This document shows, piece by piece, positions 10-62,417 of a stretch of 64,000 nucleotides of DNA. The stretch is taken from positions 10,042 to 74,041 of the forward strand of contig CAZXSK010000011.1 in NCBI GenBank assembly GCA_964642855.1, in the 5' to 3' direction. Made by a program: the position numbers and the translations under genes. The stretch's first letter is position 1. Every line of letters starts with the position of its first letter. The stretch comes from an uncultured Planctomycetaceae bacterium. Its GTDB lineage: Bacteria > Planctomycetota > Phycisphaerae > SM23-33. The notes under the pieces were generated by a model, which was not told where the DNA came from, did no database searches, and saw only the letters and a program-made list of their open reading frames with translations.

Positions 10-1416
10 TTGCGGTACGAGGTGTGGGAGATTCCCGATCCGCCGACAGGCTCTGCGCCGATCGGATCGATGGCCGAAGGAAGCATCAGCTTCGCCGGGT
101 ACAACGGCGATGCCTGGTGGTACCGTGGCGGATGGACGAAGCTTTCGGACAGCGGCTCGCCCAAGTCCGCCAGCTCGACCGGCTATGTCGTCGGGCGCGA
201 CATTGCCACGGAACAGGCAGTGGGCTGGCACGTTACGAGCGGCGGGGTGACCTATCGGCAGCTCAACGTTCCCACGCAGGGCCCCTATCCGTGGAGCGAG
301 GGGTACGGCGTGAACAACCGCGGCATCATGGTCGGCGCGGCCCAGTCCGGAGTAGGCACGAGCGCCGCATATATCCATGACTGGAATGCAGGCAGCACGA
401 CGTTCATCGATCCGATGGACCTCGACAATGACGGCGAACCGGCAGACATAATGAACGCCATTGCCGTCAATGACGCCGGCATCGTTGTCGGCAACGTGAT
501 CGACGGCTGGTACCGGGACGGATTCGTACACACGCCCGGTAGCGGAGTGGCCTCGCTGGGCGTGAAGGTGTACGCCAAGGACCTGGAGGTCTGGGACCTC
601 AGCGAAAATGGCTACGTCGCTGGAGCGATCGACGATAGCACAGTCTATGTCAAGAAGATCGGCGAGTCAGGGTATACGGACACAGGCCTCGCATACAACT
701 CCGAGCGAGGCGGCGTGAACGACGCCGGCTGGGTGGCCTCGGGCAATCAGCTCTATCACGACGGCACGGTGAGCAATATCTCCGATCTGGTCGTGCCCGG
801 CACTGGCTACGGCTGGTTCGGCATCCGCGATATCAACTCACGCGGCGTGATGATCGGCATGGCCAGGGAGAGCATGTATTCCGGCGACTGGGCGCGCGTG
901 TTGCTGTTCCCCGTGGCGGGTGACAACGTCGTGCCGAACCCGGAGTTCGATACGACCGACGGCCTGGTGACCAGCGGCGAGGTGGAGGTGGTGACAGACC
1001 CAGACGACGCGGGCAACAACTGCCTGCAGATGACCACGGCCTCGCCCGTGTACATCGAGCAACTGGTCGACACGCCGAACGGAAGCTTCGAGATCTCCTT
1101 CGACTATCGCTTCCTCGATGCCGGGGGAACGCTCCTGTTGGAGTTGAACGGCCAGGAGCTGGAGGTCCTGGGTCCCGCATCCAAGCCCGATGCCACGTGG
1201 GTGAACCATGGCCACGGCTATCTCGTGAACGACCCGTCGCTGTACAACCTGAGCGACGCTGCCTTGCGGATCACGTTCGATCATGACGAGGCGGACAAGC
1301 GGGTCCTGCTGGACAGCCTGCATCTCGGCGTTGTTGACGAGATTCCCGAGCCGACGATTCTCAGCCTGATGGGTCTGGGCGGACTGGCAATGCTGAGACG
1401 CAGACGGGGGAAGTAA
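10..1416 (+). CDS. PEP-CTERM sorting-domain secreted protein, 5' partial (open to window edge; TTG at 10 is probably not the true start)
   Basis: C-terminus ...DEIPEPTILSLMGLGGLAMLRRRRGK is a PEP motif, then a TM helix, then an Arg-rich tail, which is the classic exosortase PEP-CTERM signal. No N-terminal signal peptide is visible, and the frame is open upstream to position 1. Confidence 0.6.
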   Translation: MRYEVWEIPDPPTGSAPIGSMAEGSISFAGYNGDAWWYRGGWTKLSDSGSPKSASSTGYVVGRDIATEQAVGWHVTSGGVTYRQLNVPTQGPYPWSEGYGVNNRGIMVGAAQSGVGTSAAYIHDWNAGSTTFIDPMDLDNDGEPADIMNAIAVNDAGIVVGNVIDGWYRDGFVHTPGSGVASLGVKVYAKDLEVWDLSENGYVAGAIDDSTVYVKKIGESGYTDTGLAYNSERGGVNDAGWVASGNQLYHDGTVSNISDLVVPGTGYGWFGIRDINSRGVMIGMARESMYSGDWARVLLFPVAGDNVVPNPEFDTTDGLVTSGEVEVVTDPDDAGNNCLQMTTASPVYIEQLVDTPNGSFEISFDYRFLDAGGTLLLELNGQELEVLGPASKPDATWVNHGHGYLVNDPSLYNLSDAALRITFDHDEADKRVLLDSLHLGVVDEIPEPTILSLMGLGGLAMLRRRRGK

Positions 1417-4041: not shown

Positions 4042-4075
4042 GCGGGGCGTCCAAGATATTGGGCGCCCCGCTTGT
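4042..4075 (+). terminator. GC-rich hairpin (11-bp stem with one G-U wobble, 8-nt loop AAGATATT) followed by CTTGTGATG
   Basis: GCGGGGCGTCC/GGGCGCCCCGC inverted repeat 28 nt after the lipoprotein stop. The T-tract is weak. Confidence 0.35.
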
Positions 4076-4076
4076 G

Positions 4077-5378
4077 ATGAGCAGCCCCACGTGCCCGAAT
4101 CGGAGAAGAGGCGTGACGTCTAAGTTGACGGACAGTTTGCGAGGCATGGTGGCTGCTGTCGCTGGTCGTTTGGGGCGCAGGCGAGCGGTCGAGTCCGCGG
4201 CCATCTGCGCCGCATCTGCAGGTCCGGCTGCGATTGCGACCGGGCTTTCGCTAGCCTATGCCCGCGAAATGCCGTGGTTGGGCCTGGTTCCTCTACTGAC
4301 CGGGGTAATCGTGGGAGGGCTGATAGTCTGGTTCCGTGCTCGGCTCGACCCTTCTTCCATTGTGGCGTTCGCAGCAGGGCTGTCGGCGGCGGGCAACGGG
4401 TTGGCGGGTGCATTTCTTGTCAGCTCAGGGGCAGGCATCCCGTCCCGTTTGCTGGTTTCCTTGCTGATGCTCATCGTGGGCGGAGTCTGTGGTCTTGTTG
4501 CTGGCATCATTCGCATGCCCAGCCTGACGGACGCGGCACGCTGGTGTGACAGCTGCCTTGGTCTCGAGGACCGTGCGACGGCTGCATTGGAATCGGCCAG
4601 GCGACGGGGAGAAGACAGCGAGGTCACTCGCTGCATTACCCGTCAGGCGGTCGAGGCGATCAGTGCGGCCGACATTCCATCGGCCCGGTTGTGGGAACGT
4701 GGTCCAGGTACGTGGGCGTCGCTGGCACTTGCCATTGTGGTGACGGTGGGGGTGTCGGTGGCACCGATCGGGCTGGATCACCGAGAGGATCTTTCCACGG
4801 TCTTGGCCGGTATGCTGGATCAGTTGCCGGCTGATCAACGCGCTCGTTTGGCTGAATCGCTTCGACAGGCGCGACGGGCGAGCGATGATAGGGGCGTTTC
4901 CGAAACACTGGGAGAAGCGGCCGTCGTTGCGTTACAGGGGGACGATCCGCAGCGCCTCCGTGAGCTACTGGAAGAACTTCGTCAAGCGGGAGTGGAGGTC
5001 CGCGACATGCTGCCCGCCGACGTGCTTGCAGCGGCTGAGGCACGCCTTCGCGGTGGGGGGGGCGGGGGTGGCGAGCGAGGGACCGACGCCAATGATCTGG
5101 CCCGCCGTCCCGATTCGTTCGACGCAAGTCCGGGCGGGGTGCGAGTGTTCGACCCGGCGTACGATACCAACGCGAAGGCGGCAATCGATCCCGGTTCAGG
5201 GTGGTTCTGGCGGCCTGCGGAAGATGCCTGGGCGGACGCCAGAAGGCAGGCGACCGAGGGCCTCCGAACGGGTTCGATACCGATGCGATACCGGCAACTC
5301 ATCCGAAACTACTACGCCGGGCAAAGCCGGAATGGGGGCTATTGGAAGAGCGAGCCGCGCGGAGCGGATGGGACGTAG
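4077..5378 (+). CDS. polytopic membrane protein, hypothetical (start uncertain)
   Basis: Several hydrophobic helices (LVPLLTGVIVGGLIVWF, LLVSLLMLIVGGVCGLVAGII), then an Ala/Arg/Asp-rich soluble tail with a Gly7 run. The TTG at 4059 lies inside the upstream hairpin, so I moved the start to ATG 4077. Confidence 0.5.
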   Translation: MSSPTCPNRRRGVTSKLTDSLRGMVAAVAGRLGRRRAVESAAICAASAGPAAIATGLSLAYAREMPWLGLVPLLTGVIVGGLIVWFRARLDPSSIVAFAAGLSAAGNGLAGAFLVSSGAGIPSRLLVSLLMLIVGGVCGLVAGIIRMPSLTDAARWCDSCLGLEDRATAALESARRRGEDSEVTRCITRQAVEAISAADIPSARLWERGPGTWASLALAIVVTVGVSVAPIGLDHREDLSTVLAGMLDQLPADQRARLAESLRQARRASDDRGVSETLGEAAVVALQGDDPQRLRELLEELRQAGVEVRDMLPADVLAAAEARLRGGGGGGGERGTDANDLARRPDSFDASPGGVRVFDPAYDTNAKAAIDPGSGWFWRPAEDAWADARRQATEGLRTGSIPMRYRQLIRNYYAGQSRNGGYWKSEPRGADGT

Positions 5379-6457
5379 TTGTTCTGCAGGAAGTAGTCCG
5401 CGGCCTCTCGGGTGGAGCGGAAGACCCGCGTTGCCGTTTCCGTGATGAACGGCGACGGATCGGTCTCGGGCTGCCAGATTACGAACACGTCTCTGGTTGC
5501 TTCGTGGGCGTGCTGGAGTTCCCGTTCCACGCCACTGGAGAGTCCGGGCATGCCGTCTTCCAAGACCGGTACGAGGGAGATGATCATATCGGCCTGGTCG
5601 ATGAGCTTGAAATCGCGCGCATAGATCTGGCCATCGATATCAGGAATGATGCTCAACGCTTCAGCTGTGTCCACGGTTGAGCGGTGGTTCGCGGGGCCAA
5701 TCTCGATGGTCCGCTCGCCGATGCGGGCGGCTTTCAGGGCCTTGTCGCCGATGTACTTCTCTTCGAGGTCTCCCGGATCGAAGCAGGTGAAGTACTGCTT
5801 CATCTTGCGGCGGAAGCTCTCGATTTCAGCGAGCAATCTGGGGCGACTTCCGACGTGGGACATCGGGAAGCTCAGATATGCTTTACGCACTTCGGGGCGG
5901 AACAGAAGGCGCACGAGGGCCTTGGCGGTGCCCGATTCGATCGGGTCGTCACCCCGGGCGCAGATGTAAAAATGGCCATGGCCTTGGGTGATCTGGCTGA
6001 CAAGCTCCGTGGCGAGGATCTCTTCCTCCCGCCAGACCATCAAGTCCTTCAGCGTGTGGTTGGCGTGTCCGTCTCGAAGCAGCCTGTAATGCACGCTGTC
6101 GATGTTGTCGACGACGGTCACGTAGACGTCGGCGTCGAGCTGTTTCATCTGGTCGTAATCAAAGGCATAGAACAGCCCGTGTCGCCAGCGGAAGGTTGCG
6201 TGAGTGTTGACCAGTAGATTGGGGGCCTTGTCCGCTTCGGTGAGAATGTCCTTGAAGACGCTCCGCCGAAGGCTTTGCAGGCGTGTGAGGGGCAGGTCGA
6301 GGATCTTGCCCGGCGCGACGTCGGGCGCTTCGGCGTACATTCGCCGACCGACGTTGCAGAGGGTGCAGTCGAAGCCTTTGTCCCGGGCGATACCCACGAC
6401 GGCTTCAAGAAGCTCTTCCTTGTCCAGCCCGACCTGTCCTGTGATAACCGCTCGCAT
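5339..6457 (-). CDS. two-domain protein: N-terminal cytidylate-kinase-like/P-loop-like domain fused to a C-terminal nucleoside 2-deoxyribosyltransferase/LOG-like Rossmann domain; last gene of the pilus operon
   Basis: ATG at 6457. N-terminus MRAVITGQVGLDKEELLEAVVGIARDKGFD resembles the Cytidylate_kin2 family (ITxxxGxGG..E), without a canonical GK[ST]. C-terminus ...DMIISLVPVLEDGMPGLSSGVERELQHAHEATRDVFVIW resembles the NDT/LOG PGGxGTxxE Rossmann signature. It sits 58 nt downstream of the second pseudopilin gene on the same strand. Confidence 0.6.
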   Translation of the reverse strand: MRAVITGQVGLDKEELLEAVVGIARDKGFDCTLCNVGRRMYAEAPDVAPGKILDLPLTRLQSLRRSVFKDILTEADKAPNLLVNTHATFRWRHGLFYAFDYDQMKQLDADVYVTVVDNIDSVHYRLLRDGHANHTLKDLMVWREEEILATELVSQITQGHGHFYICARGDDPIESGTAKALVRLLFRPEVRKAYLSFPMSHVGSRPRLLAEIESFRRKMKQYFTCFDPGDLEEKYIGDKALKAARIGERTIEIGPANHRSTVDTAEALSIIPDIDGQIYARDFKLIDQADMIISLVPVLEDGMPGLSSGVERELQHAHEATRDVFVIWQPETDPSPFITETATRVFRSTREAADYFLQNNYVPSAPRGSLFQ

Positions 6458-6515
6458 GAGCGGGCATGATAGCGGCCGGGCGGGGGCGAATCAATCCGTG
6501 CTCCGCCGGCTTGAG

Positions 6516-7037
6516 CTACAGGTTCCGTCGGGGTGAACCGGAGGCTGTCATGGTGAATGACTTCCCGCGAACCTTGAAGGTCAGCTTGACGACGACCTCC
6601 AGCGCGTAACCGTTTGTGTCGTTGGCGATGGTGACCTTGAAGTCGGTGACGGTCATGTCGTCGTCGTTGTCTCCGATCAGCACCCAGGTGTCGTCGCCGG
6701 TGGACAGGGCGGGGGCGATCTTGTACTTCAGCTGGCCGGATCCGCTGTAATAGCGGTATTCCGCCAGCGTCAGACTGCTCTGATCGGCGGGATTCTTGAT
6801 GCTCAGGACCGTGTTGGGGTCAGCCGAGTCGACGTCGCTCGCCGTGCGAATCTGCCGCTTGATCTGCCCCATCACCCGCTGTGCCACCTGCATCGCGGAC
6901 GAGACTTTGTCATTCTCTTCGTAGGTGGTCATCGACGAGTGAAACGCCGTGGCCACTGCGGTCATGACCATTGCGAGGATGGCGACGCTGATGATCAGCT
7001 CGACGACGGTGAAGCCGTGTCTTCTGTGTCGAGTCAT
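6516..7037 (-). CDS. prepilin-type N-terminal cleavage/methylation domain protein (pseudopilin/minor pilin)
   Basis: MTRHRRHGFTVVELIISVAILAMV is the G-F-T-x-x-E prepilin processing motif with a hydrophobic stem. Confidence 0.75.
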   Translation of the reverse strand: MTRHRRHGFTVVELIISVAILAMVMTAVATAFHSSMTTYEENDKVSSAMQVAQRVMGQIKRQIRTASDVDSADPNTVLSIKNPADQSSLTLAEYRYYSGSGQLKYKIAPALSTGDDTWVLIGDNDDDMTVTDFKVTIANDTNGYALEVVVKLTFKVRGKSFTMTASGSPRRNL

Positions 7038-7079
7038 GGTAATCCCTCCTGGCGCGTGATACGCCGGTGCACCGAGCCG

Positions 7080-7508
7080 TTACTCGAGGCTGACAAGCCA
7101 GCCGGTTTCCAGAACGGCCCTGTTTCCGTGGAGTATCGTCACGGAGACCCGTCGGCAGGCGTGCTTGGTGTCGTTGGGATCTTCCACAAGCCCGTTGGGG
7201 TCCAGCCAGGCCAGGGAGATCTGTTGCGTCCAGCCCTTCATATGCGTGATCTCGTTGAGCTGGGAGTCCCGCGGCGGACTGTAGGTAGCTGCAGAGAGCG
7301 TGTTGGGATCTCGTCCGGCGGTATACTCGCGATACTCCTGGGCGAGAAAGACCGCCTGGGTCATTTCCTGCCCGGCGAGATTGATGCTGGAAGAGGACGC
7401 GCACGCCAGCAGCAATCCGCAGACGCCGATGGCGAGAATCACGGTGGCAATGGCGACCTCGACCAGCGTGAATCCTTCGCGCCGGCAGGGACGATGCATG
7501 CGTTTCAT
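7080..7508 (-). CDS. prepilin-type N-terminal cleavage/methylation domain protein (pseudopilin/pilin)
   Basis: MKRMHRPCRREGFTLVEVAIATVILAIGV prepilin motif. Confidence 0.75.
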   Translation of the reverse strand: MKRMHRPCRREGFTLVEVAIATVILAIGVCGLLLACASSSSINLAGQEMTQAVFLAQEYREYTAGRDPNTLSAATYSPPRDSQLNEITHMKGWTQQISLAWLDPNGLVEDPNDTKHACRRVSVTILHGNRAVLETGWLVSLE

Positions 7509-7530
7509 CGGTTTCCTCCTGTGGAGGGTC

Positions 7531-8757
7531 CTACTTCACGACCGCGGACATCTTGAAGATCGGCAGCATGATAGCCGCGGCGATGAAGCCCACGACGGCA
7601 CCCATGACCACGATCATCAGCGGTTCGATCATCGACGTGACCGTTTTAATCGTGGACTTGAGTTCCTCCTGGTAGTAATCCGACACTTCCCGCAGCACCT
7701 CGCCCAGGTTACCCGATTCCTCACCCGCGCCGACCATCTGCACCACGTTGCGGGGCAGGAGGGTCTGACGCGTCAGGGGATCGACGATTTTCGTGCCTTC
7801 CTTCACCCCGTCATGCACGCGCGTCCACATGTCACTGTAGAGCACGTTGCCCGAAACGTCGGAGGTGATCGTAAGCGTTTCCAACATCGGCACGCCCGCA
7901 GTCAGCAGTTCGCCCATCGTCTGCAGCCCGCGAGAGATGTACAGCGCCCGGAACATCTTCTTGAACAGTGGCATCTTCAGCTTGAATGTGTCAAAGGCGT
8001 GTCGGCCCTGGTCTGTCTTCTTGATCAGGACAGTCAGGCCGATGACTATGGCACCCAGCACGCCGAGGATGATCTGCCAGTCATTGCGGAGCATGTCGCT
8101 CAGGTTCAACAGCAGGACCGTTGGCGCGGGCAAAAGATCTTCCTTGCCGGCAAACAGGCCCGTGAAGCGAGGCAGGACCCACGTGAGCATGAAGACCACC
8201 GTAGAAATGGCCAGGATGCAAATGATCATCGGATAGACCATGGCGCCGATGACCATTCGGCGGGTTTCCATCTGCTGCTGCAGGTAGGCCCGGATGCGGT
8301 CAAGCATATGCCCGAGATTGCCGCTCAGCTCTGACGCCTTGATCATGTTGACATACAGGAAGGAGAAGATCTTGGGGTGCTTGCCCAGCGCTTCGGAGAA
8401 GGTCTTGCCTCCCTCCACGTCGTTCTTGACGTCGAACAGGGCCTTCTGGAATTTCTGATTCTGGGTCTGCTCTGCAATGGACTCGATCGCGGTTCGGATG
8501 TTGATGCCCGCCCGGATCATCACCGCGAGCTGACTGGTAAAGGCCATGACATCCTTCAGGCCCGGCCCACTCTCCAGGCGAATGCTCTGGAGTTTCTCGA
8601 GCAGGCTGCTTCCCGCCACGGGCGACACGCTCAGCAGGTATCCTCCCTGCTGTTTGGCCATACCGGTAGCGTCGGCGAGTGATGCCGCCTGCACCATTCC
8701 GGTCGTAACCTGACCACTGTCGTTTCGAACTTCGTAACGGTATGCCTGCATGGGCAT
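7531..8757 (-). CDS. pilC: type IV pilus assembly / type II secretion platform protein PilC/GspF
   Basis: 408 aa with the two repeated GspF domains and three TM segments. The sequence is typical of the GspF family, and the gene sits beside the ATPases. Confidence 0.9.
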   Translation of the reverse strand: MPMQAYRYEVRNDSGQVTTGMVQAASLADATGMAKQQGGYLLSVSPVAGSSLLEKLQSIRLESGPGLKDVMAFTSQLAVMIRAGINIRTAIESIAEQTQNQKFQKALFDVKNDVEGGKTFSEALGKHPKIFSFLYVNMIKASELSGNLGHMLDRIRAYLQQQMETRRMVIGAMVYPMIICILAISTVVFMLTWVLPRFTGLFAGKEDLLPAPTVLLLNLSDMLRNDWQIILGVLGAIVIGLTVLIKKTDQGRHAFDTFKLKMPLFKKMFRALYISRGLQTMGELLTAGVPMLETLTITSDVSGNVLYSDMWTRVHDGVKEGTKIVDPLTRQTLLPRNVVQMVGAGEESGNLGEVLREVSDYYQEELKSTIKTVTSMIEPLMIVVMGAVVGFIAAAIMLPIFKMSAVVK

Positions 8758-8771
8758 GGGTCACCTCCTGG

Positions 8772-9845
8772 CTAAACGACTCCTGCCAGTTGATCTTTCA
8801 AGCTATTGGGACGCTGGGCCTGCGACATGGCCTGGTCTCGGGAGATCTGTCCGTTCAGTGCCAGCGCCTTGATCGAATCATCCAGCGTGCACATGCCAGC
8901 TTGGCGAGACGTCTCGATGGCATTGGGAATCTCGTGGATCCGGTTCTCGCGGATGCAGTTTCGAATAGCTGACGAACAGAGCATGACTTCGCACGCTGGG
9001 ATCATGCCCGGACAGTCTGCCCGTTTGAACAACACCTGGCTGATGACTGCCTGCAGCGTGTTCGAAAGCATAGCCCGGATCTGGTTCTGCTGCTCCGATG
9101 GGTAGATGTCGATGATACGCTCAATCGTCTGGGAGGCATTCTGCGTGTGGAGGGTCGAGAGTACCAGGTGGCCGGTTTCGGCGGCACTGATCGCAGCCGA
9201 GGTAGTCTCGAGGTCACGCATTTCGCCCACCAGGATGATGTCGGGATCCTGCCGGAGGGCGTGCTTCAGCCCGCTTGCGAACGTGGGTACGTCGCTGCCC
9301 AGTTCGCGCTGCTCGATGATACATTTGTCGCTGAACAGCTCATACTCGACGGGGTCCTCAAGCGTGATCACGTGACGCTTGTAGACCTTGTTGATTGCAC
9401 TGATCATCGAAGCCAGTGTCGTACTCTTCCCCGAGCCCGTCTGGCCGGTAACCAGAACGAGCCCGCGGGGCAGCGTCACCAGCGACTGGATTGCGGGGGG
9501 CAGGTTCAGGGTGTCCAGGGCCGGGACATTGGAACTGATCGACCGGAAGGCGATGGCGACAGAGTCCCGCTGGAAGTGCGCATTGACTCGGAAACGTCCC
9601 GCTCCCTCGACAGCCGTCGAGAAGTCCAGGTCGCGGTGTTCTTCGAACTCCTTGAACCGTTTCTCTCCGACCATGTCCATGACGAACTTGATCGACTGTT
9701 CCGGTGGGATTTCGGGCGCTCCCTTCACGGGCTCCAGAACCGTGTGGATGCGGAATAGCGGCGGCATGTTCGGCACGATATGCACGTCACTCGCTCCGAC
9801 TTCCAGCGCCTTGGTCAGCAATTTATCCAGAAAGCCCACGGGCAT
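8772..9845 (-). CDS. pilT: twitching motility / pilus retraction ATPase PilT
   Basis: 357 aa. Walker A GQTGSGKSTT, Asp box and Walker B ...DPDIILVGEMRD, and the His box TLHT. The PilT-length protein lacks the GspE N-terminal domain. Confidence 0.9.
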   Translation of the reverse strand: MPVGFLDKLLTKALEVGASDVHIVPNMPPLFRIHTVLEPVKGAPEIPPEQSIKFVMDMVGEKRFKEFEEHRDLDFSTAVEGAGRFRVNAHFQRDSVAIAFRSISSNVPALDTLNLPPAIQSLVTLPRGLVLVTGQTGSGKSTTLASMISAINKVYKRHVITLEDPVEYELFSDKCIIEQRELGSDVPTFASGLKHALRQDPDIILVGEMRDLETTSAAISAAETGHLVLSTLHTQNASQTIERIIDIYPSEQQNQIRAMLSNTLQAVISQVLFKRADCPGMIPACEVMLCSSAIRNCIRENRIHEIPNAIETSRQAGMCTLDDSIKALALNGQISRDQAMSQAQRPNSLKDQLAGVV

Positions 9846-9854
9846 TCTCCTCGA

Positions 9855-11654
9855 TCAGGTCTCCGTGACACGGAGAATCTCTTCTACGGTGGTGTGGCCC
9901 TCGATCGCCTTGGCGAGCCCGTCTTCGCGCAACGTTCTCATTCCCGCCTCCCGAGCGGCAGATCGCAGCTCATTGAGGGTTGGGTTGCCCGTCACCACGT
10001 TGCGGATCTCTTCGCTGAGCACGAGCAACTCGTGGATGCCCGTCCGCCCCTTGTAGCCGGTGTCGCGGCACTTGTCGCATCCCTTGCCCTGGTAGAGTTC
10101 CTTGACCGGGAAGCCCGATTGCTCCAGCAGGGCTCGATACTTGGCGGGGATGTCTTTGACGGCTTCGCGACAGTTGGGGCAGATCCGGCGAACCAGTCGC
10201 TGAGCCAGCACCGCATTGACGGCTGCGGAAATCAGGAACGGTTCGACGCCGATGTTTATCAGTCGCGTGATACTCGATGGTGCATCGTTGGTGTGCAGCG
10301 TCGAGAGGACCATGTGGCCGGTCAGCGCGGCTTGGATTGCGATCCGGGATGTTGGCTCGTCACGTATCTCGCCGACCATGATGACATCAGGGTCCTGGCG
10401 CAGCAGCGAGCGGAGCGCAGCCGAGAAGCTCATGCCGATCGAGTCGTGCACCTGAACCTGGTTGGCGTAGGGTACCTCGTATTCGACCGGGTCCTCGACC
10501 GTGGAAATATTGAGCGTATCCCCATCCATGATCGCCAAGCCGGAATACAGGGTAGTACTCTTGCCGCTGCCCGTCGGGCCTGTCACGAGGACCACCCCGT
10601 GAGGCTGGAGAATCTGTTCCTTGAAGGTCTCCAGGTTCTCCTTGCTCATGCCCAGATTCTCGAGGCCCACGTTGATCGAACGACCATCGAGAATACGGAT
10701 CACGCACTTTTCCCCCTGGGTGGTCGGGAGCGTGGAGACACGCAGGTCGACGGTTCGGCCATGGACGGTGGCCCGGATCTTGCCATCCTGGGGCAGTCGG
10801 CGTTCGGCGATATCCAGATTCGCCATGATCTTCAGCCTCGAGATGATTGCTGCGTGCATCTGAAGTGGCGGGGCGTTCTGTTCGAACAGGACGCCATCGA
10901 TACGGCATCGAACGCGCAGGCGGTTTTCGCAGGGCTCGATGTGAATGTCGCTGACCTCTTCCTTGACTGCCGAGGAGATCATGAAGTTCACGTAGCGGAT
11001 AACCGGACTCTCTCCGGCGATCCGTTCTAGGTCGGCGACCTCGTCGGCCTTTTCGTCGACTACTTCTACGGCGTCCTCGGAGATGTCCTTGATGAAGTCG
11101 TCGACCTGCTCTGAGGGGCTTGCCGACATCTCTTCGACAACGGCATCGATGTCCTCCGGCGGCACGACCGTAAGCTTCAGGGGCTTCTTCAGTCGCCGGC
11201 CTATGTCCTCGATGAGGAAGATATCCGATGGGTCAGCGATGCCCAGGCGGATTCCCTTCTCGCACTTGCCGATGGCCAGAACCCGCTTCTTCTTGCAGAA
11301 GTCGGAGGGCAGGGCCTGGAAGACATCGGGATCGACGTCCCCGGCCTTGACCCGACTGAACGGGAGTTCGAAGTACTTCGCTACGGCTTGGAGAGCGTGG
11401 ATCTCGGTGATGAACTTGGCCTGGACCAGTGCCGCCAGAACACTGAGCCTGGGGTTGGTCCTCTGGACCTGCAGGGCCTTGTTCAACTGGTCGCGGGTGA
11501 TGTGTCCTGCGTCCAGCAGAACGCGCTCCGGACCCCGAATGGTGTCCTTGGCGTCCTCGGGATTCCAGACGTCGGCGAAGTCCGGCCCCCTGGTCGAGGA
11601 GTCGTTCTCGGCGGGTTTCTGCTGATTTCCTGGTTGGCGCTGGGTGCGCGTCAA
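9855..11654 (-). CDS. pilB: type IV pilus assembly ATPase PilB / GspE family
   Basis: 599 aa. N-terminal GspE_N-like region, Walker A GPTGSGKSTT, a tetracysteine motif CPNC...CDKC, and His box TLHT. TTG start with upstream GGAGAGG. Confidence 0.9.
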   Translation of the reverse strand: MTRTQRQPGNQQKPAENDSSTRGPDFADVWNPEDAKDTIRGPERVLLDAGHITRDQLNKALQVQRTNPRLSVLAALVQAKFITEIHALQAVAKYFELPFSRVKAGDVDPDVFQALPSDFCKKKRVLAIGKCEKGIRLGIADPSDIFLIEDIGRRLKKPLKLTVVPPEDIDAVVEEMSASPSEQVDDFIKDISEDAVEVVDEKADEVADLERIAGESPVIRYVNFMISSAVKEEVSDIHIEPCENRLRVRCRIDGVLFEQNAPPLQMHAAIISRLKIMANLDIAERRLPQDGKIRATVHGRTVDLRVSTLPTTQGEKCVIRILDGRSINVGLENLGMSKENLETFKEQILQPHGVVLVTGPTGSGKSTTLYSGLAIMDGDTLNISTVEDPVEYEVPYANQVQVHDSIGMSFSAALRSLLRQDPDVIMVGEIRDEPTSRIAIQAALTGHMVLSTLHTNDAPSSITRLINIGVEPFLISAAVNAVLAQRLVRRICPNCREAVKDIPAKYRALLEQSGFPVKELYQGKGCDKCRDTGYKGRTGIHELLVLSEEIRNVVTGNPTLNELRSAAREAGMRTLREDGLAKAIEGHTTVEEILRVTET

Positions 11655-11687
11655 GACAAGCCTCTCCTGTCAGATCTGCCTACGTCG

Positions 11688-12338
11688 CTACTGTTCGAGC
11701 TGCATCACACGTTGGTGATCTTTCCAGACCAGGACAACGCGTTTGTCTCGAATCTGCCGAACGGTCCAGCCCGAGATCTTCTGGCCTTCCGTAAGCAGGC
11801 TCCCTGAGATCATGGCGATCTTCCCGCTCGGGCCGGTCAGGATGGAGTCAAGTTTCAACTGATCCACAGCCACCAGCATGGCTTCGTCGCCCTTGGGCGC
11901 TTCGGGTTGGTCGGTTTCAGGCTTCTCCTCCTCGGGCTTCTGCATGAGCTGCGCGATGGAAACGAATGGGTTTCCGGACAGCTTGTCCTGCGGAATCTGT
12001 CGATCGCGTGCCTCGAAGTAGAAGGACTCCACAACGGCCTTGGCCTTGCTTGGCTTGGCGGCCTGTCTCAGTTTCGCCAGCGCGCCGGTAACGCGGATTT
12101 CGTTTCGCTGCTCGGAGGCGCTTGCCTCGACAGGTCCGCCTCGGATACTCAGCAGATAGACGGCTCCGATGCCGGCTACGAACAGGCCGATCAGCAGAAG
12201 ATTCCCTCCACCGATCTGGGGGATCTTCTCGGTCAGGCTGGTCATGTTCGACCTGGCTCCCTGTTTCGCGGGAACACCCGCACCGGGAGACACGCCAAGG
12301 CCCTGATTGGACTTGCTTGCGGATTCAGGCATCGTCAT
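11688..12338 (-). CDS. PilP/GspC-like pilus assembly protein (single TM, C-terminal beta domain)
   Basis: One TM helix (LLLIGLFVAGIGAVYLL). It lies between pilO and pilB, and its ATG overlaps the pilO stop as ATGA. The assignment rests mainly on position and topology. Confidence 0.45.
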   Translation of the reverse strand: MTMPESASKSNQGLGVSPGAGVPAKQGARSNMTSLTEKIPQIGGGNLLLIGLFVAGIGAVYLLSIRGGPVEASASEQRNEIRVTGALAKLRQAAKPSKAKAVVESFYFEARDRQIPQDKLSGNPFVSIAQLMQKPEEEKPETDQPEAPKGDEAMLVAVDQLKLDSILTGPSGKIAMISGSLLTEGQKISGWTVRQIRDKRVVLVWKDHQRVMQLEQ

Positions 12339-12913
12339 CTCCTGCTTCGTTCGAAGAAGATGGACATCGTGAAGGTTGCGCTGACATACCCGGCCGGCCT
12401 CCCACGACCGCCTGCGGCAGATAGGTTGATCTGTGTGACACGGGTGATGCGAGGCTGGTTTTCCAAGGCCTGCAGGAAGGAGTACAACCCCATGAAGTCT
12501 CCCTCCAACTGGACGACGATGGGCTGCTCAGAATGCCTGCCTCCCGCAGCCAGTCGCTTTCCCGCATTGCCTGTCTGGGGTCGGATACTCTTGGTCCGAA
12601 GATCGTTGGCCTCTGCCAGAAGCCAGATCTCCTTCAGGACCTTGTCGATTTCCTTTTCACTGGGCAGTTTCGAGCGGAAGAATGCGATCGCGCCCTCAAG
12701 CTCCCCGATCTCCCCCTTCAGATTGCCTATGGTCGCCGTGGCCCGGTTCAACTGTGCCAGTCGGACCTGTTTGGCCTCGATCTGCCCCATCATCTCCTTG
12801 TTGCGAGCGTCCTGAGGGCGAAATACGAACTGCCACGCGCCTACCGGGATGGCCAGCAGCATCGCGATGAAAACAATCTCTCGGATTCCGAACTTCATTC
12901 CTCTGCCCCCCAT
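12335..12913 (-). CDS. pilO: type IV pilus assembly protein PilO
   Basis: N-terminal TM helix, a coiled-coil, then a PilO-like C-terminal domain (EIDKVLKEIWLLAEANDLR...). Operon position is after pilN. Confidence 0.7.
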   Translation of the reverse strand: MGGRGMKFGIREIVFIAMLLAIPVGAWQFVFRPQDARNKEMMGQIEAKQVRLAQLNRATATIGNLKGEIGELEGAIAFFRSKLPSEKEIDKVLKEIWLLAEANDLRTKSIRPQTGNAGKRLAAGGRHSEQPIVVQLEGDFMGLYSFLQALENQPRITRVTQINLSAAGGRGRPAGYVSATFTMSIFFERSRR

Positions 12914-13605
12914 GCCTTGACCAGTGCCACCTCCGTCAACGAAGGCGAGTGATCGTTACTGGCTTGGATTGCTTCGATTGCGTCCATGCCCGGCTTGATC
13001 GTCATTTCCAGATGGAAGGATCGGACGGAATTCTCCTCGCTCCGTTTGCGGGCTTCGACGCTGTAGATCAGGTCCACGCTGTCGACGAGGGGGTTGTTCC
13101 GAAGCCGGGCGATATAGAGAGCGACCTCCACGTCGGTCTTCGCCTGGCCGTAGATCGTGATGTCCACGGAGGGACTGAAGCTCTTGACCGTTGGCCCAAG
13201 TGATTTCTTGCCTCGGGCCGGCCTGCGACGGGCTGTCGCCTTTCCGTTGTCCAGGATCACCCGAAGAAGGGCAACATTCTCGGGGCGTGCATTGGTGATA
13301 AAGCCGATCAGGTAGCTCCTTGGAACCCGTTCCATCAGCGCCGAGGTGTTCTCCGCCTTGGCGATGAGCTTCTTCTTCTGGAGCTCAAGTTCCTGGAGTT
13401 GATCAATCAGCGATGCAGCGCGGGCATATTCTTCGCTCACTCGTGCGGCAATCTGCTTCGTCCTTCGCGTCTTTGCTTCGGAGACAATGGCCGCTCCGCC
13501 TACCGCAGCCATCACCACCACAAAAAGCACAAAGCAGAGGACGTTCGCACGTCGCTGTGCCCTGCGTTTGGCATAGTCTTCCGGAATCAGGTTCACTGTA
13601 CTCAT
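12895..13605 (-). CDS. pilN: type IV pilus assembly protein PilN
   Basis: The N-terminus MSTVNLIPEDY is the INLLP motif typical of PilN, followed by a TM helix and a coiled-coil. It follows pilM. Confidence 0.75.
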   Translation of the reverse strand: MSTVNLIPEDYAKRRAQRRANVLCFVLFVVVMAAVGGAAIVSEAKTRRTKQIAARVSEEYARAASLIDQLQELELQKKKLIAKAENTSALMERVPRSYLIGFITNARPENVALLRVILDNGKATARRRPARGKKSLGPTVKSFSPSVDITIYGQAKTDVEVALYIARLRNNPLVDSVDLIYSVEARKRSEENSVRSFHLEMTIKPGMDAIEAIQASNDHSPSLTEVALVKAWGAEE

Positions 13606-13620
13606 GCTCGCCTCTCTAGC

Positions 13621-14703
13621 CTATGCCGCCTGGGCCGCGCCGAGGCACAGGCCCACGGCGACTGCAAACCGCGGCTGGGGAATCGGCTTCTCATCCGGTC
13701 CGGCAGGTGGCTTGCCCGGCTGGTGCACACGGGCAAGCGGATCGCCGATCTGGGCCGGAAGATGCATTCGCTTGGCGATCGCCTGGCAGAGCTGACGGTC
13801 ATTTGCCTGACCACCGACGAATACCGCTCGCTCGACGCCCTGATTCTTGAACACCGACTCGCAGTATCGAAGACACTGGGTCAGTTCGCTGCCGAATGCG
13901 GTCAGTGGTTCCTCGAGATAGCCCAGAAGATCCACTACCGGAGCTTGGGGATCTGCCTGCAACTGCGTTCGTCGAAGCTGCCGGGCCTGATCGATGGAAA
14001 TCTCCATGCCCTTCGACAGGGCCTGAGCAAACTGGTCGCCGCCGATCTGAAGATTGTGCGCGAACAGGATCTGCGTTCCTCGCGCCAGAACCACCTGGGT
14101 AGTTGCCTCGCCGATGTCGACGAACAACTTCGGCTGATTCGCTTCGGCCTCAGTACCGACCTTCGAGAAGCACTCGGCGATTGCGCACGGCTCGACGTTG
14201 ACTGCTATGGGATCCAGCTTCGCCCGTCTGCAGAGTTTCAGGTAGGCATCCACGCGGTCGCGCGGGGCCGCGATCACAATCGCCTCCTGACTGGCTTCGC
14301 CTTCTTCGCTGTACACGTCCCCGGCGACAAAGTGTCGAATGACCGCCTTGGACAGTGGGAAGGGGACTTTCTCACCGATCTGCGACTCCAGCGTCTGCTC
14401 GATAGGCAGCTTCGAGTTCTTCGGGATCCGGACCGGGTGGACGAACGTGTCGTCGGAAGGGAGCGAGATGGCGCATTCCGTACCCTCAAACGGGTGTGTC
14501 TGCATCAGTGACCGGAGCGTCTCGGCGAGGTAGCGGGTGCGAAGCTTGAAGTCTCTTCGGCATGGGTGGGGAATGTCGGAGGTAGCCAAAGCTACGAGTT
14601 CAAGCCCGCTTTCCCGTTGGCGGAGTTGCACCATCTTCAGAGAGCTGGTTCCAAGATCCAGCCCAATGGGCAGAGCGTTATTGGAGGATTTTCCAAGTGC
14701 CAT
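13621..14703 (-). CDS. pilM: type IV pilus assembly protein PilM (actin-like ATPase fold)
   Basis: The N-terminus ...PIGLDLGTSSLKMVQL is the actin/FtsA-like phosphate-1 motif characteristic of PilM. It is the first gene of the operon. Confidence 0.85.
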   Translation of the reverse strand: MALGKSSNNALPIGLDLGTSSLKMVQLRQRESGLELVALATSDIPHPCRRDFKLRTRYLAETLRSLMQTHPFEGTECAISLPSDDTFVHPVRIPKNSKLPIEQTLESQIGEKVPFPLSKAVIRHFVAGDVYSEEGEASQEAIVIAAPRDRVDAYLKLCRRAKLDPIAVNVEPCAIAECFSKVGTEAEANQPKLFVDIGEATTQVVLARGTQILFAHNLQIGGDQFAQALSKGMEISIDQARQLRRTQLQADPQAPVVDLLGYLEEPLTAFGSELTQCLRYCESVFKNQGVERAVFVGGQANDRQLCQAIAKRMHLPAQIGDPLARVHQPGKPPAGPDEKPIPQPRFAVAVGLCLGAAQAA

Positions 14704-14992: not shown

Positions 14993-16162
14993 TCACATAT
15001 CTTCGAAAAGGTCTGCAAATACTGAATTTGCGACAAACCATGCCCGTCGCGTCAGCCTGACATTCTCTGACGTGATCTTCAGCATTCCGTTTGCACAATA
15101 CTTTGAAAAGACTTGCGCAAAGGACTCTGCCGGATCCGCGCCATACCGCTGCAAGAAGTCGCGGCGGGATATCCCTTCGACCAGACGCAGGCCCAGCATG
15201 AGTCCCTCGGCCAGTCTCCGTCTGCCCTCAAGCTGCTCGGACGAAGACACGGCAGACTCGCCGGCTTGTATACTCTCGATGTAGGTGTTGAGTTCACAGG
15301 CATTTGTCGATCGTGTCCGGCCGTCATAGCTCGATGCAGCGGGCCCTGTGCCAAGATAAGGAAGATTCTGCCAGTAGGTGAGATTGTGCCTGCACCGATG
15401 GCCAGACCGGGCGAAGTTGGAGAGTTCATAGGGCGATAGCCCGTGGGAGGAGAGGAAATCCACAGCCATATCGTAGCAGTCTGCCTGGAGATCGTCGTCC
15501 ATCTCTCTGAGTCGTCCGGCCCGGACTTCCCTGGCCAGTTCTGTGCCTCTCTCCACGCTCAAGGCGTAGCAGCTTACGTGCGAGGGCAACAGGTCGACAC
15601 ATCGCTCCAGCGATTGCTGCCAGGAAGCCACGGTTTGTCCCGGCAGGCCGAACATCAGATCCAGGGAAAGGTTGGTAATGCCTTCGTCTCGAAGAATCTC
15701 TGCGGTCGTGGCGACATCTTCAGGTTTGTGGGCCCGGCCCAGGACCTCCAACTCCCGGACAACAAAAGACTGTGCCCCCATGCTTATCCGATTGGCCCCC
15801 ATGGTGGAGAGAAGCTGAGCCTTCCCCCGATCGATCGTTGCGGGGTTCGCCTCCACGGTGAACTCCGTCTCCGGCCCGCACAGCGGCTGGATCGCAGAGA
15901 GCAGGTCCTGCAGAAGCGGTGTCTCGAGTGCTGTGGGCGTGCCCCCGCCGACGAAGACGGACCCGACCGGAAGGGCAAGCATACTCGACTTCGCAGCAAG
16001 TTCCCTCTGGACTGCCTTCAGGTAAGCTGCGGCCTGCGTTTCCTCCATCGGAACAGAGCAGAAGTCGCAGTAGCTGCACTTGCGGATACAGAAGGGCACA
16101 TGGACGTAGAGCGCCCGGCAGGGGGGAGGGGCAAGATCGGTGTGTTTTTGCTTGCAGGGCAT
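14993..16162 (-). CDS. hemW: radical SAM heme chaperone HemW / HemN-like oxygen-independent coproporphyrinogen III oxidase family
   Basis: LYVHVPFCIRKCSYCDF is the CxxxCxxC radical SAM motif in the HemN-family context. The 389-aa length fits. Confidence 0.85.
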   Translation of the reverse strand: MPCKQKHTDLAPPPCRALYVHVPFCIRKCSYCDFCSVPMEETQAAAYLKAVQRELAAKSSMLALPVGSVFVGGGTPTALETPLLQDLLSAIQPLCGPETEFTVEANPATIDRGKAQLLSTMGANRISMGAQSFVVRELEVLGRAHKPEDVATTAEILRDEGITNLSLDLMFGLPGQTVASWQQSLERCVDLLPSHVSCYALSVERGTELAREVRAGRLREMDDDLQADCYDMAVDFLSSHGLSPYELSNFARSGHRCRHNLTYWQNLPYLGTGPAASSYDGRTRSTNACELNTYIESIQAGESAVSSSEQLEGRRRLAEGLMLGLRLVEGISRRDFLQRYGADPAESFAQVFSKYCANGMLKITSENVRLTRRAWFVANSVFADLFEDM

Positions 16163-54872: not shown

Positions 54873-55071
54873 CGCCGTCGCGGGTTGACACGACTTTGCG
54901 GGGCTGGTAACAGAGAGTCCCATACCCAGTCGATCCGCAGTCGGTTTCCGGCCCGTTGGAGTGACGTTTCCTCGCTGAGTTTCTCTCTCCGTCGATGCGC
55001 TCCGCCACGGGCGGACCTCTGCCTGCGATCCATGCCGCGGGGCAGACCAACCAGAAGGAAGGAGCAGTACC

Positions 55072-57247
55072 GGTGACCCGGAAGACGGATTTCCTCCGCG
55101 AGAAGTACGACCAACTGCACGCGACCCCCATGCAGCAGAAGCTCAGGAAGATCGCGCCGATGCCCGTCGGCGTGGTGTTCATCGAATGGCCGGGCATGAC
55201 CGAAGACGACATGCGCCGGCATTTCCGCCTGATGAAGGAACTCGGGTACACCTGCCTCAAGGGCATCCTGCTCTGCCGCGGAACCGACCGCCGCAAGGTC
55301 ATGCACATGGCCCTCGACGAGGGGATCATTCCCTGGTGGTACGACGAAGGCGGATGGGAGGCGATCACCGACGAGCTGCTGGAATCACTCGGCATCGACC
55401 CGGACACCCCCATCGAGCAGATCCGCACGAACGAGAAGTTCCTCGCCCACCAGGAGAAGGTCCTTCGCGAGCGGATCGACCGCGAAGCCGACGAAGGCTC
55501 CGGCCGGCCCGTCGAACGCGGTTTCCGCAATGTCTTCCGCTTCGACGGTTCGCTGCCCGACGAGATGGTCGACGACTTTCTCGACTGGCTCACGGAGCAG
55601 TACGAGACCGTCGACGGCGTGTGGGAAGCGTGGAACCTGCACCACGCGGGCATCCCCGGGCCGCTCGAACCGTGGACCGACTGGCCGCAGGTCCGCGCGT
55701 ACGTCCAGAAGGCCGTCGACGGCGCCAAGGCCGGCCAGGCGTCGCTGTATGTGCCCATGCAGCGCGAGTACCGACGCATCCGTGACATCCTGCGCTTCAA
55801 GGCCGACCAGTACGTCGACCACATCCGTCGGCGGATCGAGGCCCAGCAGCAGGTCGACCCCAACGCCGTGTTCCGCGCCGGCGGCGAAATGGGCCTGTTC
55901 CTGCCCTTCGCCTCCCGCGCGACCGACATGGAAGGCATCGCCTCGGTAATGGCTGAGGGCGGCTCGTTCTACCCGTCGATCCACCTGGCGTGGCACTTCG
56001 AGGAAGTCGGCTTCGAGGTCGCACGCCCCGTCTACTTCCAGGCCTCGCTGGTGGCTGACTGGTTCAAGGGAGGCTGGAGCGCCACGTGGGAATCCACGGG
56101 CGGCCCGCAGCAGCTTTCGGGGGGCAAGGCCAATCTCTACCCGCCGGCCCAGAACGTCTGGCCGAGCTCGACCGTCGACGCCGGCGTGATGACCCAACTG
56201 ATGCTCAGCTACCTCGCCGCGGGTTTCCGGGGCTTCGGGTTCTGGACCTGGACCGCCCGAACGGCCGGGTGGGAGGCAGGGGAGTTCGCCCTGCTGGACC
56301 GCAACGCCGAGCCCTGCCAGCGCACCGTGCAGGCGGGCAAAGTCGCCCAGGCGGCCCGCCGCTGGCGCGACGAACTCTGGGAGGCCCGCAAAGAGCCCGT
56401 CGTCGGCGTGTTCACCGACTTCGACAACGACGCGATGTGGTCGGCTGCGTCGGTGGCCGGACGAGACTTCTACAAGCGCGTGCCCGTGTTCGCCCGCGTG
56501 GGCGCTTCGCGGGCGCTGGTCAACGGCAACGTGCCCTTCGAGCACGTCACCGCCCGCGACCTCCGCGCCGGGCTCGCCTCGCGATACCAGGTCATCTACC
56601 TGCCCGCCGTGCTCGCACTCGCCGGCGACCTCCAGGAGATCCTCCTGGACTACGCACGGCAGGGCGGACGCGTCGTGCTCGACATGCCCGGAGCGTGGTA
56701 CGACGACTTCGGCCGCATGCTCTCCACCGCCCAGGGAACCCCGTTCGAGAAACTCTTCGGCGCCAGCATCCGCGACTACCAGTACTCGCGGAACGTGCCG
56801 CGCAGCCTCAACGGCCGGCAGCTCGACGGCTTCGTCGTGGACCTCGGCGTCACCGGGGCCCGCACGCTGGCCGAGTACGACTCCGGCGCCCCGGCGATTA
56901 CCGAACACGCCGTCGGCGACGGGGCGGGGGTGATCCTCGGCTGGGAAGCGTCGCTGCAGTGCCACGAGCCCGGCAACGACCTCGGCGAGGCAGAGCTCCG
57001 CAAGTATGCCCTCGGCGGCATCGAGCTGCCCTACGCCTGCGACGGGGCGCTGGTCTACCGCCAGGCCGCACCCGAGGCAGATCACTACTTCCTGATCAAC
57101 GATGGCCCGGAAACCACGGTGACCCTCAAGACCCCAGCCTACAGCTATGCCTCGGCGCTGGACGTGATCGCGGACGAACCGATCGCGCCCGGCGACCCGA
57201 TCGACCTGCCCGCCCACAGCGGACGGTGGGTCCGCATGGCCAGGTGA
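55072..57247 (+). CDS. glycoside hydrolase, GH42-like (beta-galactosidase-type trimerisation/GATase-like domain present)
   Basis: GTG at 55072 after the strong AAGGAAGGAG Shine-Dalgarno sequence, preferred over ATG 54995. The middle region YQVIYLPAVLALAGDLQEILLDYARQGGRVVLDMPGAWYDDFG resembles the GH42 trimerisation domain. Family assignment is tentative. Confidence 0.6.
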
Positions 57248-57286
57248 GGCTGCAGCCGAACCGGTCGCCACAACCGGAGACATGAC

Positions 57287-59572: not shown

Positions 59573-59629
59573 CCTTGGCCTCGCGAGGCCGGGCCTGGGT
59601 GGTGTTTGCGAAGCTGACAGGAGCAAGTC

Positions 59630-60985: not shown

Positions 60986-61114
60986 GATAGATGACCTGCT
61001 TGACCCGGGCGGCATCTGGGGCGTGGGATTCATGCACGATCCGGCCGCAGATTCACGAGCCAACGGCCGATAAATAGAATGTAGCCAGCCGTCACCGAAC
61101 GCGAGGGAACGCCC

Positions 61115-61717
61115 ATGAAGTTCGCCATCGTTGCGATGCTGCTGACCGTCACCTGTTTCGCCGGCGCCGCCCACGGCGAGATCTACACTGCCCTGGACCT
61201 CGGAGGCTCGGCCGCCTACGCCACGGTAGGAGATGTTTACAGTTTCGGATTCCGTTTCTCCACCGACGAGACGATCTGGGTTTCCTCGCTGGGGTACTTC
61301 GACTACAACGAGGACGGCTTGGGCGACAGTCACGCCGTGGGTATCTACGACGAGGACGGGAACCTGCTGGTCTCGACCACCGTCACCCCCAACGATCCGC
61401 TTGACCGTGGGTTCCGGTACAACGACGTCGAGTACGTCGAGCTTCCGGCGGGGACCTACACCATCGCCGGCGACAGCGGAAGCGACCGGACGCGGGACGC
61501 CTACGGCAGCAACTACGGCACGATCAACACCGCCGAGGGAATCACGTATCTCGGATCGGCCATGATCTCCAGCGGCAGCCTGGTCGAGCCGGTTGCGGAT
61601 TCCACGCCGGGCGGGTTCTTCGGCCCGATGCTGAAGTTCGATACCGTTCCCGAGCCGGCTACGCTTTCTCTGCTGGCGATCGCCGGCCTGGCCGGGCTGC
61701 GGCGCCGCCGTCGCTGA
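61115..61717 (+). CDS. PEP-CTERM sorting-domain secreted protein
   Basis: Signal peptide MKFAIVAMLLTVTCFAGAAHG. C-terminus VPEPATLSLLAIAGLAGLRRRRR is the PEP-CTERM signal. Confidence 0.75.
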   Translation: MKFAIVAMLLTVTCFAGAAHGEIYTALDLGGSAAYATVGDVYSFGFRFSTDETIWVSSLGYFDYNEDGLGDSHAVGIYDEDGNLLVSTTVTPNDPLDRGFRYNDVEYVELPAGTYTIAGDSGSDRTRDAYGSNYGTINTAEGITYLGSAMISSGSLVEPVADSTPGGFFGPMLKFDTVPEPATLSLLAIAGLAGLRRRRR

Positions 61718-61718
61718 C

Positions 61719-61750
61719 GGCCTGACCGTCCCGGCCTGACCGTCCCGGCC
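61719..61750. repeat. 14-nt tandem direct repeat GGCCTGACCGTCCC x2.3
   Basis: Exact copies at 61719-61732 and 61733-61746, plus partial GGCC. Located between the PEP-CTERM gene stop and the truncated glycosidase fragment. Confidence 0.8.
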
Positions 61751-61753
61751 GGA

Positions 61754-62365: not shown

Positions 62366-62417
62366 CGTTCGCCGTCGCCAGGCCGGCTGTCCGCCCGGTC
62401 GGGCTCCTCCGGCGCGG

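Follow-up and report, generated by a model that had tools for sequence, protein, structure and literature searches.

The window analysed here is a 64,000-nucleotide stretch of contig CAZXSK010000011.1 from an uncultured Planctomycetaceae bacterium. Its minus strand carries, directly after a type IV pilus cluster, a gene for a 372-residue protein that an earlier note, made from the sequence alone, had singled out as the last gene of a pilus operon and an odd passenger there. We find that this protein belongs to a large family in which a P-loop domain related to archaeal adenylate kinase (AdkA) is joined to a domain of the nucleoside 2-deoxyribosyltransferase (NDT)/DNPH1 fold, and that the family has no conserved neighbours. 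The explanation we favour, at somewhat better than even confidence, is a housekeeping nucleotide-5′-monophosphate N-glycosidase that also has a domain derived from a kinase, for nucleotide binding or phosphotransfer, encoded by a stand-alone gene that would be independently transcribed, probably into a leaderless mRNA. The gene and the parts of its product are as follows, with residues numbered along the 372-residue chain.

5339-6457, minus strand: AdkA-like/NDT-like two-domain protein, complete gene (372 codons plus stop, ATG start; from the list of open reading frames, ORFs)
5903-6457, minus strand: N-terminal domain, residues ~1-185, AdkA-like P-loop nucleoside monophosphate (NMP)-kinase fold
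6416-6442, minus strand: non-canonical Walker A motif/P-loop, T6-G-Q-V-G-L-D-K-E14 (75-member alignment)
6170-6208, minus strand: N84-T-H-A-T-F-R-W-R-H-G-L-F96, the most conserved N-domain motif, counterpart of D-T-H in AdkA
5378-5902, minus strand: C-terminal domain, residues ~186-360, NDT/DNPH1 fold
5864-5878, minus strand: Y194-L-S-F-P198, first-strand motif whose Tyr is the counterpart of the NDT/DNPH1 active-site Tyr (alignment)
5519-5539, minus strand: S307-S-G-V-E-R-E313, predicted phosphate-binding Ser and nucleophile Glu (alignment)
5339-5377, minus strand: disordered C-terminal tail ending P-R-G-S-L-F-Q, with the stop codon (family motif PPxGxLF[A/G]-COOH)

Gene and domain architecture

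Close homologues all open with MR.V(V/I)TGQVG, and the ATG start at 6457 is credible because of this shared beginning. With 5,332 homologues at E ≤ 1e-3, the ORF is by sequence comparison a real gene, far beyond chance. The exact protein is also present on three short contigs of the same organism, where its pilus neighbours are identical.

Searched by itself, the window protein matches the Pfam family AAA_17 at a borderline 27.6 bits, scores 22.2 bits against the NCBIfam AdkA equivalog NF003122 (cut-off 155), and gives weak phmmer matches to archaeal adenylate kinase structures. Conservation was read from an alignment (A3) of 75 diverse members with 26-51% identity to the window protein, to which all counts out of 75 refer. 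When these members were scanned singly, AAA_17 was found in 67 and PF05014 (Nuc_deoxyrib_tr) in 57 (E ≤ 1, best 9.6e-8), and precomputed annotation assigns both Pfam domains to several archaeal members. The two-domain architecture proposed earlier, a P-loop NMP-kinase-like half followed by an NDT-type half, is thereby borne out. An AlphaFold model built with 38 homologues has a pLDDT (predicted local distance difference test) of 87.8 and a pTM (predicted template modelling score) of 0.87, a value that, for a chain of two domains, points to a fixed interface between them.

Four residues are fully invariant in the alignment, Y194, P228, G309 and E313. All lie in the C-terminal domain, which argues that this domain is catalytic rather than structural. 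Conservation above 90% extends to G7, G10, L53, R64, H86, W142, R143, E146, S196 and P198, and to F226, D227, R281, D282 (74/75), I286, Q288 (73/75), S307 and P336.

The C-terminal glycosidase-like domain

The motif PGLSSGVERELQHA, which the earlier note had quoted for this half, is present in the protein. Y194 is found in 75/75 members, with S196 and P198 in 73/75 each; in the second motif E313 and G309 are each found in 75/75 and S307 in 69/75. When aligned with known enzymes, the segment S307 to E313 falls on SPGTHIE in the CMP N-glycosidase 4jen and on DDGVAFE in the true transferase 7o62. Further on come S335 (63/75) and P336 (69/75), at a place comparable to that of S128′ in DNPH1, although the position is approximate. 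In human DNPH1 the 5′-phosphate is coordinated strongly by S98 and S128′ (PMC10603095). S98 stands six residues ahead of the nucleophile, the same spacing as from S307 to E313, and S128′ is contributed by the adjacent subunit.

The best structural matches of the domain are the true 2′-deoxyribosyltransferases 7o62 and 6evs, followed among nucleotide-hydrolysing relatives by MilB (match score 12.8), YtoQ (11.6) and Rcl/DNPH1 (11.1); structures of the TIR and LOG types stay below 10. The combination that marks LOG/SLOG proteins, a PGGxGTxxE motif with LOG as the closest fold, was not found in this domain. Of the NDT/LOG label once given to the C-terminal half, the NDT part is supported by PF05014 in 57 members, and DNPH1 takes the place of LOG.

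With the NDT enzymes (PF05014; 7O62, 6EVS, 1F8X) the family has in common the fold, the nucleophile Glu (E313) and the active-site Tyr (Y194). They differ six residues before the Glu, where the transferases have an Asp that contacts the 5′-OH and the family has Ser307. Because Ser307 replaces the transferase Asp, specificity for nucleotides, that is for a 5′-phosphate, appears likely. The DNPH1/Rcl and MilB/BcmB N-glycosidases share with the family the motif Ser-x-Gly-x-x-x-Glu, seen in 4jen as SPGTHIE. Against this likeness, sequence similarity to them is marginal (E 0.015-0.33), and the family has an insertion of ~45 residues (residues ~230-272) as well as the kinase-like fusion. For nucleotide N-glycosidase chemistry in this domain we put the chances at a little above one in two.

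The N-terminal kinase-like domain

A profile of diverse members matches six AdkA structures, at E values from 3e-14 to 2e-9. AdkA (COG2019; 6LN3, 6PJW, 1NKS, 1KI9, 7OWE) and the N-terminal domain thus have the NMP-kinase P-loop fold and a detectable homology in common. What had been described as a cytidylate-kinase-like P-loop half without GK[ST] is indeed kinase-like and without that motif, and the profile, equivalog and phmmer evidence makes its type AdkA rather than cytidylate kinase.

Several features set the family apart from AdkA. The Walker A motif of AdkA reads GxPGxGK[ST]T, whereas that of the family reads TGxSGxx[K/R] (GQVGLDKE in the window), or more fully T-G-x-[S/V/T]-G-x-[D/G/N/E]-[K/R]-x, with GK[ST] in only 2/75. 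G7 and G10 of this loop are at least 96% conserved; position 12 is D, G, N or E overall and D, G or N in 53/75; position 13 is Lys or Arg in 69/75 (Arg in 13/75); and position 14 is variable. D, G or N at position 12 fits a left-handed backbone, so that the loop geometry is probably retained. By the conservation pattern we would infer that the anion hole of the P-loop is kept and the classical Mg-binding Ser/Thr lost. The family also adds to AdkA the motifs F-R-W and W-R-E-E-E and a second, catalytic-looking domain, and it falls well below the curated equivalog cut-off (22 versus 155 bits).

The most conserved N-domain motif has the family form (N/D)-T-H-A-x-F-R-W and aligns to DTHALVKT of 6ln3. 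In it H86 is found in 71/75 members and F89, R90 and W91 in 66/75 each. The second signature of the domain is W-R-E-E-E (W142-R-E-E-E146). Residues 88-96 have pLDDT below 50; they form the sole low-confidence loop in the model and are at the same time almost invariant, a combination typical of a flexible loop that would become ordered on binding a ligand.

By these comparisons taken together, the protein would couple an enzyme of the DNPH1/MilB type to a module of the AdkA type and stand outside both AdkA proper and the true deoxyribosyltransferases.

The terminal peptide

All of 38 close homologues share G368, L370 and F371 of the C-terminal tail, and the last block of the model has a pLDDT of 46. 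The dipeptide LF is among the final 22 residues of 119/120 close homologues. A sister subgroup of ~395 residues (loci L028-L088 in our numbering) has an N-terminal extension with xxLFGxxxRxG in 90/109 and a C-terminal RERGRFG in 76/109; QKPLF, which fits the clamp motif QxxLF (bacterial β-clamp QL[SD]LF), occurs in the C-terminal tail of some members. The terminal LF motif might dock a partner protein, act as a degron, or form part of a tail by which an adjacent active site is completed. A PIP-box (PCNA-interacting peptide) that we considered in one bathyarchaeal member, which ends QEELLDFF, was dropped, as this segment is the conserved last helix of all members and the pattern is absent from other archaeal ones.

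Size, distribution and annotation of the family

The best 120 homologues are all full-length, at 65-71% identity. Among 1.84 billion cluster representatives, an exhaustive profile search picked out 1,148 clusters (50% identity) at E ≤ 1e-3, with the two-domain length kept down to about E = 1e-40. When one genome per GTDB species was scanned, at least 488 species genomes were found to encode a relative at 53-70% identity, and the best 80 of these at least 488 are almost all from Phycisphaerae (Phycisphaerales, Tepidisphaerales, Sedimentisphaerales). Two relatives of typical Phycisphaerae type (L040 and L066, 56-57% identity) come from metagenome-assembled genomes labelled Alphaproteobacteria and Parvibaculum and are probably mis-binned contigs, not genuine cases from beyond Planctomycetota. 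Archaea make up the divergent branch of the family, with members in Thermofilaceae, Thermoprotei, Brockarchaeota, Bathyarchaeota and ‘Thaumarchaeota’.

As far as its homologues tell, the family is common to Phycisphaerae and to archaea of the TACK or Thermoproteota-Bathyarchaeia type, a spread that suggests inter-domain transfer. The family is uncharacterised, and its distribution is broad, vertical and strongly conserved. The identity level, the at least 488 species genomes and the 1,148 clusters point to a housekeeping character. Databases label the best 120 as ‘AAA family ATPase’ or ‘ATP-binding protein’, or, at the Joint Genome Institute (JGI), as ‘adenylate kinase’.

Genomic context and the pilus cluster

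The surroundings of the gene in the window are the following.

6458-6515, minus strand: intergenic gap of 58 nt between the second pseudopilin gene and the 372-codon gene (sequence and terminator scan)
6466-6494, minus strand: σ70-like promoter candidate TTGATT-17-TATCAT, its -10 element ending 8 nt before the ATG (consensus scan)
6516-7037, minus strand: second pseudopilin ORF with N_methyl motif, immediately upstream on the same strand (Pfam)
6516-14703, minus strand: type IV pilus cluster, neighbouring context outside the gene, with pilM, pilN, pilO, pilP-like, pilB, pilT, pilC and two pseudopilins (Pfam)
4059-5378, plus strand: convergent membrane-protein-like ORF of 439 residues, whose 3′ end overlaps the 372-codon gene by 40 nt (5339-5378; ORF list)

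The immediate layout is as the earlier note had it. The ORF list and Pfam agree that the gene follows the second pseudopilin gene on the same strand after 58 nt, and the 40-nt overlap with the convergent gene is seen both in the window and, by separate gene calling, on a contig identical to it (L002), where the convergent gene is 433 residues long. In the pilus cluster PilC falls in the Pfam class T2SSF and PilT and PilB in T2SSE.

This layout is not shared by relatives. We ran tblastn with the pilus proteins of the window against 85 non-identical loci, with a reach of 8 kb. Only 3/85 loci (L004, L009, L019) have PilB/PilT/PilC together with both pseudopilins on the same strand and no more than 8 kb upstream. 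In L008, L014 and L018 the sole same-strand match upstream is a pseudopilin-like ORF, and L020 and L077 gave only weak antisense matches (PilB/PilT-like in L077). In every case 1.3-2.8 kb of other genes separate the pilus genes from the homologue, and among the 85 loci no direct adjacency to pilus genes was found outside this organism. In L004 and similar relatives, extra ORFs of 447 and 422 residues lie between the pseudopilins.

The intervening genes are a redoxin of ~370 residues with an AhpC/TSA thioredoxin fold and one or two small ORFs. Ten close relatives (L004, L008, L009, L011, L013, L014, L017-L020) have the redoxin gene upstream in the same orientation, and tblastn found no match to it in the window. 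The gene thus abuts the pseudopilin gene because the redoxin and small genes have been lost or moved; by this comparison of loci, its pilus adjacency in the window is a derived state resulting from local gene loss or rearrangement.

All-against-all clustering of the neighbouring ORFs of the 85 loci gave no family present in more than 10/85, the commonest being the redoxin, which is confined to close relatives. The larger contexts are mutually unrelated and include alanine racemase/URO-D, esterase/CBS, ferredoxin/PAP2 and a convergent iron-sulphur cluster (ISC) operon. This last (Rrf2, IscS, NifU, HscB/HscA, Fdx) lies just downstream in L004, L005 and L008, as synteny and not as an operon with the gene. 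On the archaeal side, three Bathyarchaeota-type loci (L089-L091, at 8001-9720) have an FtsJ/RrmJ-type RNA methyltransferase gene 20 nt after the homologue on the same strand, flanked by Trm1, Trm56 and TGT/PUA genes; the arrangement is absent in four other archaeal contexts. We dropped the archaeal neighbours as a functional lead, since FtsJ/Trm1, EMG1/Rpr2, ribosomal proteins and radical SAM are mutually inconsistent.

A candidate promoter

The gap upstream of the gene holds the promoter candidate listed above. We looked for such an arrangement with the pattern TTGAnn-16..19-TAnnnT, requiring the -10 element to end 5-10 nt before the start. It is present in 10/24 species-level loci of the closest subgroup, the window counted, at distances of 6-8 nt (in relatives L004, L005, L007-L009, L011, L014, L018 and L020), compared with 13/9,600 random positions in the same loci, and several further loci are near misses. 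The -35 hexamer with the following C, TTGATTC, is itself conserved. The arrangement occurs behind pseudopilin genes, behind the redoxin gene and behind others alike.

There is thus good comparative evidence for a predicted dedicated promoter. The 58-nt gap holds no Shine-Dalgarno sequence, and this, with the -10 element 6-8 nt from the ATG, suggests a leaderless or near-leaderless mRNA.

We are accordingly confident that the protein is not functionally tied to pili. The idea of a gene closing a pilus operon as its odd passenger founders on full synteny in 3/85 loci, on the genes that intervene there, and on a candidate promoter conserved behind different upstream genes; the check whether pilus operons of relatives also end in this gene gave a negative answer in the 85 loci, none of which has it adjoining pilus genes outside this organism. 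The reason for flagging the gene is gone, as its membership in a pilus operon is unsupported and the adjacency a lineage-specific accident. What is left once the pilus link falls away is a large, strongly conserved and uncharacterised family.

Proposed function

From homology and residue conservation we can propose a substrate class, a chemistry and a role for the N-terminal domain. The C-terminal domain most likely binds a nucleoside or 2′-deoxynucleoside 5′-monophosphate; Ser307, and perhaps Ser335 as well, would hold the 5′-phosphate. The N-glycosidic bond would then be cleaved or transferred via a covalent ribosyl-Glu313 intermediate, with Tyr194 in a positioning role, and the products would be the free base and (deoxy)ribose-5-phosphate.

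The N-terminal domain would be a descendant of archaeal adenylate kinase that keeps G7, G10, K/R13, His86, Arg64, Arg90 and W142-R-E-E-E146, and an adenine nucleotide is its most likely ligand. It might regulate the glycosidase by sensing energy charge, as in AMP nucleosidase and PpnN, or it might take part in coupled phosphotransfer, such as an Adk-like equilibrium with subsequent destruction of its AMP. That the kinase-like site is catalytically active we regard as possible but doubtful. Amn and PpnN each couple a catalytic N-glycosidase domain with a regulatory domain that binds nucleotides. The parallel is one of function only, as the folds of Amn (PNP/UDP fold) and PpnN (LOG/SLOG fold) are unrelated to ours and no homology was detected.

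Several points weigh against this proposal. The phosphate-Ser argument hangs on one motif position, and the second phosphate Ser, S335, is placed by approximate position only. The window protein itself has no match to the NDT Pfam models (none to PF05014 at E ≤ 10). The kinase-like site retains many basic residues, so that it may belong to a true kinase rather than a sensor. The terminator scan found no terminator-like hairpin on the minus strand of the 58-nt gap, so that read-through from the pilus cluster is possible. Literature searched for the kinase/NDT domain combination or for a Phycisphaerae adenylate kinase gave no description of the fusion.

The conserved residues yield testable predictions, namely a glycosidase acting through Glu313, Tyr194 and Ser307 and a degenerate P-loop domain for nucleotide binding or phosphotransfer. 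Resolving the function would add a missing piece to the core nucleotide metabolism of a little-studied bacterial class, and would also correct a widespread and misleading ‘adenylate kinase’ annotation.

Alternative explanations

The protein might be a true adenylate or NMP kinase, perhaps the housekeeping Adk of Phycisphaerae, with the NDT-like domain serving only oligomerisation or regulation. Clear AdkA homology, the JGI label, the conservation of K/R13, R64, R90, R143 and H86, and the near-universal and strongly conserved distribution would fit this, and bacterial adenylate kinases likewise have no Ser/Thr right after the Walker Lys (GKGT). We nevertheless think it unlikely, given that the canonical GK[ST] is all but lost, that Arg stands for the Walker Lys in 13/75 members, that the AdkA equivalog score is far below its cut-off, and that the fully invariant residues are all in the C-terminal domain. 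A tblastn search with E. coli Adk found no match in 1.25 Mb of local locus flanks, which as flanks only are uninformative on adk.

A second alternative is a two-step salvage enzyme, in which the C-terminal domain would be a (deoxy)nucleoside transferase exchanging bases and the N-terminal domain would phosphorylate the product. NDT together with deoxynucleoside kinases forms a salvage route in lactobacilli, and the C-terminal domain is structurally closest to 7o62 and 6evs, with PF05014 as the Pfam family matched by members. But the Asp that contacts the 5′-OH in transferases is Ser in 69/75 members, as in the nucleotide-specific hydrolases, and the N-terminal domain resembles NMP kinases (AdkA), unlike deoxynucleoside kinases. 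We consider this explanation quite unlikely.

More speculative is a new enzyme class of TACK archaea and Phycisphaerae, in which both domains would cooperate on damaged or modified nucleotides or on 5′-phosphorylated nucleic-acid ends, tethered to the sliding clamp of the replisome by the LF peptide, which is C-terminal in one subgroup and N-terminal in another; we give it a low probability. The related and very improbable idea of a nucleic-acid-end or replisome enzyme, with a PNK/Clp1-like P-loop and a 5′-phosphonucleotide glycosidase recruited through the terminal LF peptide, draws on PPxGxLF-COOH in 119/120 close homologues, on the N-terminal xLFG of the sister subgroup (90/109) with its QKPLF tails that fit QxxLF, and on the FtsJ-type methyltransferase gene within 20 nt in one bathyarchaeal lineage. 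However, the clamp-motif Gln is missing from the close subgroup, a degron or a piece that completes the active site of a neighbouring subunit (as in NDT and DNPH1) would account for a hydrophobic C-terminus just as well, the archaeal neighbourhoods are inconsistent, and the best fold matches are small-molecule enzymes.

That the gene is a pilus accessory after all, co-transcribed as the last gene and, for example, supplying or sensing nucleotides for the PilB/PilT ATPases, has a very slim chance. It would accord with the shared strand, the 58-nt gap without a terminator-like hairpin, the identical arrangement on the three contigs of the same organism and the loose synteny in L004, L009 and L019. 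Set against this are the rarity of full synteny (3/85, with a pseudopilin-like ORF alone in 3 more), the redoxin gene and small ORFs (1.3-2.8 kb) in between, the unrelated neighbours of most members, including all archaeal ones examined, and the conserved candidate promoter directly upstream. Finally, a conflict or defence effector that depletes or modifies nucleotides, as the earlier note's mention of conflict systems would have it, is scarcely credible for a protein with no PADLOC match (0 families) and nothing significant in PHROGs, with no partner gene or defence-island context, and with a broad, vertical distribution conserved in at least 488 species genomes where a defence gene is expected to be patchy and fast-evolving.

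Other features of the window

The convergent ORF at 4059-5378 matches no Pfam family and gave only a sub-threshold match to EI24. An ORF of 2,356 residues at 55385-62455 on the minus strand was set aside as a probably spurious antisense ORF of high-GC DNA; it has no Pfam match and overlaps the plus-strand ORFs at 54995-57247, 57287-59572 and 59630-60985. Among the ORFs of the pilus cluster that were scanned, no secretin (PilQ) was identified. A radical SAM gene of the HemN/HemW type lies upstream of pilM at 14993-16162. At the start of the window a plus-strand ORF of 468 residues (10-1416) has a weak match to DUF3466 and ends in a PEP-CTERM sorting signal (VDEIPEPTILSLMGLGGLAMLRRRRGK; PF07589, 21.5 bits).

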